This document shows, one piece after another, positions 12,480 through 13,978 of a DNA stretch of 32,000 nt (its first letter is position 1; each line of letters begins with the position of its first letter). Under the pieces are notes generated by a model. The model saw only the letters and a list, made by a program, of their open reading frames with translations. It ran no database searches and was not told the DNA's origin. Source of the DNA: Nitrospinaceae bacterium (GTDB taxonomy: Bacteria; Nitrospinota; Nitrospinia; Nitrospinales; Nitrospinaceae); NCBI GenBank assembly GCA_965237905.1, contig OZ250172.1:2981784-3013783 (forward strand). Direction: 5' to 3'. Both the position numbers and the translations under genes were made by a program.

Positions 12480-13112
12480 ATGTCGTTTGTTTATATGAAA
12501 ATCCTTGAATCCCGTCCCGAACGATACGATATAGGAATGGGTCTGTTGACTTTGGGATCGTTGACAAAAATTAAACGGCAAATCGCAGATCATGTTAATC
12601 CCGGAAATCGAGTCCTCGATTTGGGCTGCGGGACCGGAACATTGGCACAAATGTGCATTGAACGAGGGGCGCAGGTGGCTGGGGTAGATGCCAACAGCGG
12701 TATGCTTGAAGTGGCAAAGAGAAATTCGCCTTCTGCAAATTTTCTTAACATCAGCCTTAGCAATCTGGATGAGCATTTAGAGGATGAATCATTCGATATT
12801 ATTTTAAGCACTCTTGCATTCAGCGAATTGACCCGCGCAGAGAGACTTCATGTATTGAAACAAATCAAAAGAATCTTGAAAAAAGAAGGAAAGGTTCTTA
12901 TCGGTGACGAAATAATTCCGGAAAATTTATCCGCCAAATGTTTTTACTATGCTTTCAGATTACCCATGCGGCTTCTTACCTGGATCGTGACCCAAAACAC
13001 CACTAACGCTATTTCTAATTTCGATGATGATGTGCAGCAGGCGGGCATGGAAATAGTCAGCCGCAAGCCGTTTATGTTGGGCATGTTCATCCTTTTGGAA
13101 ATTAAAAAATGA
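12480..13112 (+). CDS. Class I SAM-dependent methyltransferase
   Basis: 210 aa. SAM motif I is VLDLGCGTGTLA, followed by the acidic post-I GVDAN and ILKKEGKVLIGD. The N-terminus ILESRPERYDIGMGLLTLG is UbiE/COQ5-like. Its TGA overlaps the next ATG (ATGA at 13109-13112). Confidence 0.85.
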   Translation: MSFVYMKILESRPERYDIGMGLLTLGSLTKIKRQIADHVNPGNRVLDLGCGTGTLAQMCIERGAQVAGVDANSGMLEVAKRNSPSANFLNISLSNLDEHLEDESFDIILSTLAFSELTRAERLHVLKQIKRILKKEGKVLIGDEIIPENLSAKCFYYAFRLPMRLLTWIVTQNTTNAISNFDDDVQQAGMEIVSRKPFMLGMFILLEIKK

Positions 13113-13978
13113 TCGGTTGGATTAAAGACATCTATCAAACGCTATTTCGGTTTGCCCGGTTTCCGTGCGAACCTGAAACCATTGCTATCGGGAATCCTGC
13201 AAAATACTCGCCGGTTCTTGTCACCTGCAATTTTGATTATACGGTCAGACATTTAAAGAATTATTTGGAAGAAGAGCATATAGATTGCTTTCTTCTGGTG
13301 GTCAATACCAAAGGCACCAACGTCTGGTGCGCGGCGGCTGAAGGTATTTTTACAACCGAAACGGTTCTTGCCCATTTAAAGGTTTATAATGTAAGAGAGC
13401 TTGTTAATCACACCAACTTGATACTTCCGCAATTGTCTGTGGCTGGAGTAAAAAGAAAAGCTCTCAAAGAACATGGCTGGGAAGGAATTTATGGTCCGGT
13501 TTACTTTGCCGACTTAAAGGAATTTTTGGATAACGACTTTCGCAAGACCAAGGACATGCAGGCTCTAGAATATGGATACTGGGAGCGTTTTAAAATGGGT
13601 CTCAGCCATGCGGTTTTCTGCACATTAGTTTGCATACTTCCAATTTTTCTTTTTGCTTCCGAGTTGTGGCTTCAAGCCATCGTTTTAGTCTGGTACTTCG
13701 CTTTCAGTATGCAATTAATTGAACATTTTATTCCCTTCGATAGATTGCTATACAAAGGTCTAGCGCTTTCCTTGCCAATTCTGGTACTGGTGCTGTTTTT
13801 CTCAATAGATACTGTTTTGCAAATCCAGGTAATAATCGGGATTATTGCCTTAGGTGCTTTTATTGGATTCGATGCCCAAGGTCATTCCCATCTCGGGCAA
13901 AATCAGAATTCGGGAAAACTTACTGCTGGGATTTTTGCATTTTTGGCTTTATCTTATGGAGGTTTATTATTGCTATGA
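13109..13978 (+). CDS. HgcA-like corrinoid-binding membrane protein
   Basis: 289 aa. From memory, the N-terminal ~150 aa parallels the HgcA/CFeSP corrinoid domain. GNPAKYSPVLVTCNF compares with GNP..SPVLVTANY. VVNTKGTNVWCAAAEGIFT compares with the cap-helix motif N(V/I)WCA(A/G)GK. LILPQLSVAGV compares with LILPQLGATGV. GPVYFADL is also present. About 5 hydrophobic helices follow (residues ~165-289). ATGA start/stop overlaps link it to both neighbours. Confidence 0.7.
   Translation: MIGWIKDIYQTLFRFARFPCEPETIAIGNPAKYSPVLVTCNFDYTVRHLKNYLEEEHIDCFLLVVNTKGTNVWCAAAEGIFTTETVLAHLKVYNVRELVNHTNLILPQLSVAGVKRKALKEHGWEGIYGPVYFADLKEFLDNDFRKTKDMQALEYGYWERFKMGLSHAVFCTLVCILPIFLFASELWLQAIVLVWYFAFSMQLIEHFIPFDRLLYKGLALSLPILVLVLFFSIDTVLQIQVIIGIIALGAFIGFDAQGHSHLGQNQNSGKLTAGIFAFLALSYGGLLLL

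Follow-up and report, generated by a model that had tools for sequence, protein, structure and literature searches.

The window analysed here is a 32-kb stretch (32,000 nucleotides) of contig OZ250172.1 from a Nitrospinaceae bacterium, and the gene of interest within it encodes a corrinoid membrane protein that resembles the mercury methylase HgcA. We are highly confident, judging from sequence comparisons, that this HgcA-like protein belongs to a non-classical clade whose members are linked to CpaM, a corrinoid protein-associated class I methyltransferase of the S-adenosylmethionine (SAM) type. True HgcA has this CpaM-associated HgcA(B)-like family as its sister clade, and the proteins known as “fused HgcAB” belong to that family as well; the window protein is not a classical HgcA. 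The explanation that we favor overall, with moderate confidence, is that the Nitrospinaceae branch of this family would carry out a metal-induced methyl relay.

Family placement and the cap helix

The sole Pfam match of the HgcA-like protein was CdhD (PF03599, residues 17–130). The sequence-related solved structures are large subunits of CFeSP (corrinoid iron–sulfur protein; AcsC/CdhE) of the Wood–Ljungdahl pathway, which carry a homologous Rossmann-like corrinoid-binding domain (VDTDGTSVLTAWAAGKFT aligned with VNTKGTNVWCAAAEGIFT). The alignment of the ~445-aa CFeSP chains with the HgcA-like protein is confined to their last ~120 residues, and the rest of the HgcA-like protein consists of membrane helices; CFeSP further differs in its Thr at the position of Cys74, its N-terminal [4Fe-4S] domain, its TIM-barrel domain, and its solubility. 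Hydropathy and AlphaFold2 indicated five transmembrane (TM) helices (residues 157–182, 184–203, 213–229, 235–258, and 269–288), in line with the layout given in the original prediction, an earlier reading of this DNA that described a corrinoid domain followed by about five such helices. The AlphaFold2 model (mean predicted local distance difference test score, pLDDT, of 87.7; predicted template modeling score of 0.75) matched the deposited HgcAB model 9a0b_A best in Foldseek (E 2.7e-10) and CFeSP next.

The cap-helix region (residues 67–82, TKGTNVWCAAAEGIFT, positions 13307–13354) includes Cys74 and Glu78 and is homologous, column for column, to the corresponding segments of 40 true HgcA proteins (NVWCAAGKGTF) and of CFeSP (SVLTAWAAGKF). 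Cys74 aligns with a Cys in all 40 of the true HgcA proteins (Cys93 of ND132). The earlier claims that the NVWCAAA segment corresponds to the cap helix, that its Cys is kept, and that Gly-Lys is replaced by Ala-Glu were thus borne out. The corrinoid-contact positions T39, T45, and V72 were conserved across all groups compared in the alignment (roles of these residues as given in PMC7305189), and Cys74 is likewise invariant outside CFeSP with its Thr.

A homolog search of 5.8 billion proteins with the HgcA-like protein returned 54 close relatives of 57–100% identity, nearly all 289 aa long, the named ones being Nitrospinaceae. After a gap in identity there followed, at 41% or less, proteins of 320–443 aa with 4Fe-4S domains, that is, fused HgcAB-like proteins. 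The motif NVWCAA[A/V/S]E, and with it Glu78, was found in 53 of the 54 Nitrospina-clade members, the exception being a garbled 888-bp contig. On whether AAAEG is conserved in the clade, a check named in the original prediction, Glu78 is thus kept, and the residue before it is A, V, or S. All 66 fused relatives are Lys-less, reading NVWCA[A/G/S]x[G/A]G. Since these kin carry Gly at the position, the exchange of Gly-Lys for Ala-Glu, and the charge reversal read from it, is real relative to true HgcA with its Lys, whereas relative to the nearest relatives the change is one of Gly to Glu. Among the 150 best 50%-identity family representatives, drawn from 1.84 billion proteins, the cap motif carried Lys in 45, Gly in 79, and Glu in 6; none of the 45 Lys-bearing representatives was extended at the N-terminus or held a ferredoxin motif inside the chain. 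One protein, P0334 (314 aa), reads NVWCAAGEG yet scores 401 bits on the true-HgcA model (cut-off 275), so a Lys-to-Glu change by itself does not disqualify function.

Several lines of evidence agreed with the earlier view of the gene as a paralogous lineage. The NCBIfam models ranked HgcAB_like (NF043039) first at 228.7 bits, then HgcA_corrinoid (NF040863) at 135.7 bits and CFeSP gamma at 79.3 bits. The protein falls below the HgcA cut-off of 275 bits and also below the HgcAB_like cut-off of 285 bits, in the latter case because only positions 1–240 of the 350 in the profile match. Its motif, NVWCAAAE, is not among the six cap motifs of verified methylators (NVWCAAGK, NVWCASGK, NVWCAGGK, NIWCAAGK, NIWCAGGK, and NVWCSAGK; PMC10087281). 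For the phylogeny, metagenome contigs were screened for DNA that would translate to NVWCAAGKGTF, and the matches represented true HgcA. This gave 118 open reading frames (ORFs), most of which precede a 2[4Fe-4S] ferredoxin with a terminal CC; the set is thus defined by motif and hgcB linkage and not by named verified strains. From the corrinoid domain we built a neighbor-joining (NJ) tree with 94 sequences, 131 columns, and 200 bootstraps. The Nitrospina type came out as monophyletic in 98% of the replicates and true HgcA in 98.5%; a joint group of the two appeared in just 2%, which places the Nitrospina clade outside true HgcA. The signature residues V46, R47, and W124 are common to the Nitrospina type and the fused family, where true HgcA has F, D, and F. 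A published maximum-likelihood (ML) tree (LG+C60) likewise recovered two well-supported clades, with Nitrospina-like hgcA in that of fused hgcAB (Lin et al. 2023, PMC10083202).

The ratio of non-synonymous to synonymous substitution rates (dN/dS) of the HgcA-like gene against its orthologs was 0.10–0.17 over 289 codons, with dS saturated. Given these values and the motif kept in 53 of 54 clade members, a chance ORF can be ruled out; more than 40 Nitrospina-type sequences also keep the length of 289 aa.

CpaM linkage and the missing ferredoxin

The methyltransferase noted upstream in the original prediction is indeed there, as a class I enzyme, and it scores 254.6 bits on the CpaM model NF043040 (cut-off 180). 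Its stop codon overlaps the start of the HgcA-like gene by 4 bp (ATGA). We scanned one genome per GTDB species, which yielded 453 relatives with Lys-less motifs, and examined 80 of their loci. In 79 of these, from many phyla, a CpaM homolog lies directly upstream of the HgcA-like gene, and in some the two share one ORF. By comparison, among 79 true-hgcA control loci, each with at least 700 bp of upstream DNA, at most two had a methyltransferase in this place, a weak generic match of 28–38 bits; CpaM orthologs score 100–430 bits.

The two proteins also occur as single chains. Four CpaM–HgcA(B)-like fusions (P0272, P0294, P0321, and P0365) carry an N-terminal CpaM part of 231–265 bits, above the cut-off, and in a fifth (P0345) this part reaches 177.4 bits, just under it. 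An N-terminal extension was present in 21 of the 150 family representatives and in none of the Lys class. Linkage and fusions together indicate that CpaM and the corrinoid protein make up a two-part unit that true hgcAB lacks. NCBI curators encode the link to a corrinoid protein in the very name of NF043040, and our literature search for CpaM or corrinoid protein-associated methyltransferases found no paper describing it. As a side observation, CpaM, the HgcA-like domain, and often a ferredoxin were joined in single polypeptides (triple fusions) at loci L040, L044, L063, L072, L076, and L077.

Turning to HgcB, a scan of the whole window in six frames turned up neither a CxxCxxCxxxC nor an ECGAC motif. 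Neither the 13 kb upstream of the HgcA-like gene nor the 18 kb downstream of it hence contains an hgcB, as had been predicted. The slot usually taken by hgcB is nevertheless not empty: it holds a gene for a 62-aa Cys-containing protein and then a YHS/TRASH-type gene. Across the family, CxxCxxCxxxC motifs numbered zero in all 54 Nitrospina-clade members versus one or two in all 66 fused matches, and most true-HgcA control loci have an adjacent ferredoxin gene. Published surveys agree, with all Nitrospina lacking a neighboring hgcB (Lin et al. 2023, PMC10083202) and with hgcA but no hgcB in four Nitrospinia genomes, none from an organism in culture (Kop et al. 2024, PMC10839748 supplement).

The alignment of these proteins (A1) located the difference behind TM4. 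There, the fused proteins read G[YF]D..G.SPL... / G(W/S)SPL and continue into the ferredoxin domain, whereas the Nitrospina proteins read GFD(A/S)QGHSH(L/F)GQNQ and continue into a fifth hydrophobic helix that runs to the C-terminus. The Nitrospinaceae branch lacks the C-terminal 2[4Fe-4S] domain and has in its place a TM5 preceded by GHSH. From the topology and the positive-inside rule, GHSH would lie on the cytoplasmic side. A split intermediate exists in a Nitrospirae metagenome-assembled genome (MAG; locus L021), in which a separate 70-aa 2[4Fe-4S] ferredoxin is encoded beside a 303-aa HgcA-like protein. In a co-evolution model of HgcAB, Gly96 of the Gly-Lys pair contacts Arg58 of HgcB (PMC7305189), which makes the substituted Ala-Glu site the ferredoxin-facing interface. 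The change would therefore fit a lineage that does without this ferredoxin.

Taken beside the fused HgcAB-like proteins (NF043039; Pyrococcus furiosus and others), the window protein is alike in its best-scoring model, its Lys-less motif, V46/R47/W124, the cpaM directly upstream, and membership of the same published ML clade (PMC10083202). Unlike them, it has neither a 2[4Fe-4S] domain nor a Cys-rich tail, and it carries Glu instead of Gly at position 78; moreover, GHSH and the fifth TM helix are found only in the Nitrospina clade, where the regulator is of MerR and not of ArsR or TetR type. With HgcA (NF040863; Parks et al. 2013) it shares the corrinoid domain and five TM helices, the NVWCAA core, the Cys, and the corrinoid contacts. 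It departs from HgcA in its Ala-Glu for Gly-Lys, its separate clade, the absence of hgcB from the window, and its dedicated methyltransferase, which true hgcA loci lack.

A conserved cassette under a MerR-type promoter

In 15–16 Nitrospinaceae loci the gene order is the same: a divergent MerR-type regulator, DUF169, cpaM, the hgcA-like gene, the 62-aa gene, and the YHS gene (Table 1). The three core genes have dN/dS values of 0.03–0.17 (cpaM, 0.03–0.08), and those of the 62-aa gene are 0.04–0.17, with one value of 0.39.

For the regulator, a longer ORF of 229 aa was also listed, which represents an upstream extension. The protein has an N-terminal helix-turn-helix, a coiled coil, a Cys at the 79-type position, and a C-x7-C loop, and it faces a dyad promoter (19–20-bp spacer), all as in MerR-type sensors. 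Cys84, Cys119, and Cys127 were invariant in 15 orthologs, at spacings of 35 and 8 residues. The 35-residue spacing puts Cys84 where sensors of divalent Hg, Zn, Cd, and Pb have Cys and Cu(I) sensors such as CueR have Ser, a distinction reportedly drawn by Changela and colleagues in 2003.

The promoter region, with its hexamers 19 bp apart and a perfect 10-nt dyad (AACCTGTAGT-t-ACTACAGGTT, positions 11615–11635; inverted repeat I1, 100% complementary), is by its sequence a classic MerR-family architecture. Ten other Nitrospinaceae loci, with proteins diverged to ~80% identity, have the same site upstream of DUF169, differing at no more than two of its 31 nt. The operator may be PbrR/CadR-like (ACyCTrTAGT...).

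The first gene of the operon, DUF169, was conserved in loci L001–L016, and residues C44, H62, C65, C165, and C183 of its product were invariant in 55 homologs. Its AlphaFold2 model (pLDDT 92.4) had no fold match in the PDB. A 48%-identical homolog lies directly upstream of CpaM and a fused HgcAB-like gene on an unrelated metagenome contig (L205/L206, 4001–4714), where radical-SAM genes flank the cluster. Downstream of DUF169 we made two side observations: at another locus, NPINA01 (L201, 7074–7343), a gene for an 89-aa thioredoxin/glutaredoxin-like protein lies between DUF169 and cpaM, and in many loci the gap between these genes is 315–530 bp. As the gap in the window (12405–12479) is merely 76 bp, this thioredoxin/glutaredoxin-like gene is missing here.

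The orthologs of the 62-aa protein all keep the motif CECTRSK and mostly also SSCC; the gene was also found in L018 and L202, and its product had no Pfam or NCBIfam match. The CxC...CC pattern and the position in the hgcB slot suggested a detached remnant of the HgcB or fused Cys-rich tail. We dropped this idea as unsupported, since shuffled decoys scored as well in a hidden Markov model (HMM) search and the hhalign probability was 0.12%. In the YHS protein, for which 16 orthologs were aligned, a CPxC...FFCxxC module occurs twice and the C-terminal GCC is conserved; the true start of the protein is probably at 14141 or 14153, since the orthologs begin with MTTD.

The six-gene cassette (11190–14581) has a GC content of 43.0%, against 50.0% in the rest of the window, and the same dip of 5–7 points was seen in five other genomes (L001, L008, L011, L013, and L201). 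The genes that flank it in the window (SIR2, Lcl_C, HD, and CbiQ) adjoin it in no other locus examined. From composition and context, the cassette looks acquired or mobile. The downstream CbiQ and HD genes were considered as parts of the system and rejected, as they are not conserved beside the cassette in any other locus.

The window protein belongs to the same lineage as the Nitrospina “HgcA-like” proteins described previously (Gionfriddo et al. 2016; Villar et al. 2020; Tada et al. 2020, 2021). It is 74–89% identical to proteins of Nitrospinaceae and Nitromaritima MAGs and single-amplified genomes, including SCGC AAA288-L16. Fig. 1b of Villar et al. shows the same context, MerR–DUF169–“UbiE”–HgcA-like–YHS, in which cpaM is drawn as “UbiE”. 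There is no difference in kind from these known proteins; the window copy only lacks the thioredoxin-like gene of NPINA01. The paralogous-lineage reading is accordingly already published as regards the context, the separateness from verified HgcA, and the lack of hgcB. The present analysis adds numerical support and a more pointed hypothesis, by way of the contrast in CpaM linkage (79/80 versus at most 2/79 loci) and the CpaM fusions as Rosetta-stone evidence, the invariance of Glu78 against a Gly-bearing sister group, the TM5 and GHSH in place of the ferredoxin, and the conserved MerR-type promoter.

Table 1 Features of the cassette and of the HgcA-like protein in the window
Feature	Position	Strand	Evidence and remarks
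MerR-family metal-responsive regulator, 137 aa	11190..11603	-	start MQNREKRL; Pfam MerR, MerR_1, MerR-DNA-bind
MerR-type promoter/operator	11612..11642	+	TTGAAC, 19-bp spacer, TATATT; faces the DUF169-cpaM-hgcA-like operon
DUF169 protein, 236 aa, first operon gene	11694..12404	+	Pfam DUF169 2.6e-22
CpaM, corrinoid protein-associated class I (SAM-type) methyltransferase, 210 aa	12480..13112	+	NF043040
HgcA-like corrinoid membrane protein, 289 aa plus stop	13109..13978	+	ATG start; Pfam, NCBIfam, tree, AlphaFold2, Foldseek
CFeSP-type corrinoid domain	13157..13543	+	Pfam CdhD residues 17-130; PDB 2h9a 5.2e-13 over 19-140
Cap-helix segment NVWCAAAEG	13319..13345	+	Cys74 presumed cobalt ligand; Ala77-Glu78 for Gly-Lys of true HgcA
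Membrane domain, five predicted TM helices	13577..13972	+	hydropathy, AlphaFold2 secondary structure, alignment A1
GHSH motif, G258-H261, end of TM4, clade-specific	13880..13891	+	alignment A1
Acidic, Cys-containing protein of 62 aa, conserved, at the place of hgcB	13975..14163	+	16 loci, 37-131 bits
YHS/TRASH-type Cys-rich protein	14129..14581	+	Pfam YHS 2e-14

A possible methyl relay and its alternatives

The relay that we propose would run in four steps. First, a thiophilic divalent metal would act on the three-Cys MerR-type sensor at the 19-bp-spacer promoter and switch on the operon of DUF169, cpaM, the hgcA-like gene, and the genes for the 62-aa Cys protein and the YHS protein. Second, CpaM would use SAM to methylate the reduced corrinoid cobalt of the HgcA-like protein, with Cys74 as the lower axial ligand. 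Third, the methyl group would pass, with the assistance of Cys74, to an acceptor at the membrane face, most likely a soft metal ion delivered by the small Cys-rich protein and the YHS protein, and the product would then exit the cell. Fourth, the electrons that reduce the cobalt would come from a non-dedicated donor. The sequence data show the family placement, the linkage of the genes and their fusions, the conservation, the architecture of the promoter, and the lack of a ferredoxin; that the methyl comes from SAM, which way it moves, and that a metal accepts it are inferred from these. Of these parts, the passage of methyl from CpaM to the corrinoid appears reasonably probable. A soft metal is a plausible acceptor that we propose tentatively, and Hg(II) specifically would be an unlikely one. 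The link to metals draws on the three-Cys MerR, the conserved promoter, the GCC of the YHS protein, the CEC and CC motifs, and the ArsR, MerT-like, and Csp neighbors of relatives.

Known enzymes offer partial parallels. CFeSP is methylated by a folate-dependent TIM-barrel methyltransferase, unlike the SAM-type CpaM proposed here. A precedent for SAM as donor to protein-bound cobalamin is found in the reactivation of cobalamin-dependent methionine synthase (MetH), in which SAM and a one-electron donor remethylate cob(II)alamin. This is a functional analogy for the proposed CpaM step: the proteins are unrelated, and MetH uses SAM for repair only and not at each turnover.

Several points weigh against the proposed relay and the placement beneath it. 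The split of Nitrospina type plus fused family from true HgcA plus CFeSP had only 39% support in the NJ tree rooted on CFeSP, whose fragments attract the Nitrospina branch in a long-branch manner. We dropped this rooting of the three clades, and for that reason the step that makes the Nitrospina and fused types sisters draws on shared gene linkage, on the published ML tree, and on residues that act as signatures. The cap residues 71–80 were modeled by AlphaFold2 at low confidence (pLDDT 54). The regulator scores 114.6 bits on MerR, 111.1 on CueR, and 110.4 on CadR/PbrR, and it stays under every metal-specific NCBIfam cut-off (MerR, CueR, CadR, and ZntR), so that no specific metal is assignable. 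The CpaM model is itself only of “hypoth_equivalog” grade. No electron donor was identified, and DUF169, with its conserved Cys, has no recognizable fold. Finally, the neighbors of the fused relatives are heterogeneous: among 150 ORFs at 46 loci there were 12 ABC-2 exporters, 9 TetR regulators, and 7 ArsR regulators. As ABC-2 exporters and TetR are commoner than ArsR, organic substrates fit as well as metals.

It is rather unlikely, in our assessment, that the gene encodes a genuine mercury methylase, which would methylate Hg(II) in Nitrospina with a housekeeping ferredoxin in place of HgcB and would make the use of the gene as a marine marker right in essence, wherever the methyl group comes from. 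Such an activity would agree with the retained Cys74 and corrinoid contacts, the three-Cys MerR-type regulator, and the Cys-rich partners, among them a C-terminal GCC reminiscent of Hg-handling Cys pairs (PMC7305189). The abundance of the gene correlates with methylmercury (MeHg) in seawater (PMC7347909), its expression in the ocean is reported in work cited in PMC12874090, and P0334 shows a Lys-to-Glu variant inside the true HgcA family. Against it stand the cap motif, which is outside all six validated ones (PMC10087281), and the score under the HgcA model cut-off. Tested members of the wider fused clade were also negative: organisms with the P. furiosus and M. methylutens proteins made no MeHg (PMC4646819; PMC10087281). 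In model methylators hgcB is needed, and none was found in the window or in the published Nitrospina surveys; no isolate carrying the gene has been assayed so far (PMC12874090).

This alternative bears on a practical matter, as the literature confirms the earlier statement that Nitrospina-type hgcA-like genes serve as markers of marine Hg methylation. They dominate “hgcA” counts in open-ocean metagenomes, and their counts have been used to argue that nitrite oxidizers make methylmercury in oxic water. Because the tested members of the clade are negative, the ferredoxin is absent, and the gene has its own methyltransferase and metal sensor, such counts should not be taken for methylation potential until the cassette has been assayed. 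Its sequence does not justify counting the HgcA-like gene as a marker of ocean Hg methylation. The lineage is thus relevant to a live controversy, though it would not surprise a specialist. The cpaM, hgcA-like, 62-aa, and YHS genes offer a concrete unit for testing, with the MerR regulator and its promoter as a ready-made biosensor.

We regard it as improbable that the acceptor is a non-metal, such as an organic toxin or metabolite, with the MerR, YHS, and Cys proteins as a Nitrospina-specific regulatory add-on that has nothing to do with the chemistry. The excess of ABC-2 exporters and TetR over ArsR-type regulators near the fused relatives speaks for it, as do the radical-SAM genes around one DUF169–CpaM–HgcAB-like cluster. 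Yet in 15–16 loci of the Nitrospina clade the core genes are kept together with the MerR promoter, the YHS gene, and the gene for the small Cys protein, some relatives adjoin a MerT-like/HMA protein or Csp, and Cys-ligated corrinoid has so far been tied to organometallic methyl transfer (PMC7305189). Two loci illustrate these neighbors. The Nitrospirae locus L021 (4176–7868) encodes, in order, an ArsR-type regulator, CpaM, the 303-aa HgcA-like protein, the 70-aa ferredoxin, and a MerT-like (CCIGPL) protein with an HMA-like C-terminal end, the domains of the last read by eye and not by HMM. In Isosphaeraceae (L203/L204, 4080–8265), an ArsR-type helix-turn-helix gene, two unknown genes (141 and 173 aa), and cpaM precede the fused HgcAB-like gene, which is followed by a second methyltransferase and then by a gene for Csp (copper storage protein).

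A role in corrinoid handling (uptake, salvage, or remodeling) without methyl transfer, like that of the Cys-on B12 transporter BtuM, is highly improbable. The protein is a membrane protein with a Cys placed to ligate cobalt, BtuM is mentioned as a precedent for Cys-on binding in PMC7305189, the window has a CbiQ-type gene 1.7 kb further downstream, and cobalamin is supplied to Nitrospina cultures (PMC10092583). However, the CbiQ and HD neighbors are conserved in no other locus, B12 uptake is not usually under MerR-type control, no B12 riboswitch was seen, though no search for one was made, and this role would leave unexplained why the gene is so strictly linked, and at times fused, to a SAM-type methyltransferase. 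Lastly, the notion of a decaying, non-functional remnant of an hgcAB operon after loss of hgcB, for which the lost ferredoxin, the changed motif, the patchy distribution among Nitrospinaceae, and the low GC of the cassette might speak, is effectively refuted by the selection data on the HgcA-like gene, besides its constant length, the invariant Cys74 and Glu78, the conserved operon and promoter, and the ocean transcripts cited in PMC12874090.

Returning to the metal-induced methyl relay, it would be a bold step, and one we think unlikely to prove right, to regard the cassette as a self-contained, MerR-induced, and SAM-driven system that detoxifies metals by methylation independently of HgcB, folate, and the acetyl-CoA pathway. 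If true, such a cassette could operate in a microaerophilic nitrite oxidizer, and with Hg(II) or another soft metal, for instance Cd or Pb, as acceptor it would explain by what mechanism methylated metals form in the oxic subsurface ocean. Were the acceptor Hg(II), it would constitute a second, biochemically distinct route to methylmercury.

Some further observations concern the relatives and the remainder of the window. Directly upstream of cpaM in ~10 other fused-type loci lie ORFs of ~160–175 aa, often as a tandem pair, noted by size and position only. Nitrospina-type cassettes also occur in MAGs labeled Flavobacteriales, Nitrospirales (4.6 Mb), Methyloglobulus, and Chloroflexota (L005, L009, L018, and L019), and are probably binning or assembly artifacts or transfers; in L019, cpaM is frameshifted and the hgcA-like gene truncated. 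Within the window, an ORF of 1632 aa (22604–27502) has weak multicopper-oxidase matches near its C-terminal third, its remainder being unannotated. Two tandem genes for CNNM/CorC-type (CBS-domain) divalent-cation transporters (4636–7289, minus strand) are ordinary and unrelated to the cassette.

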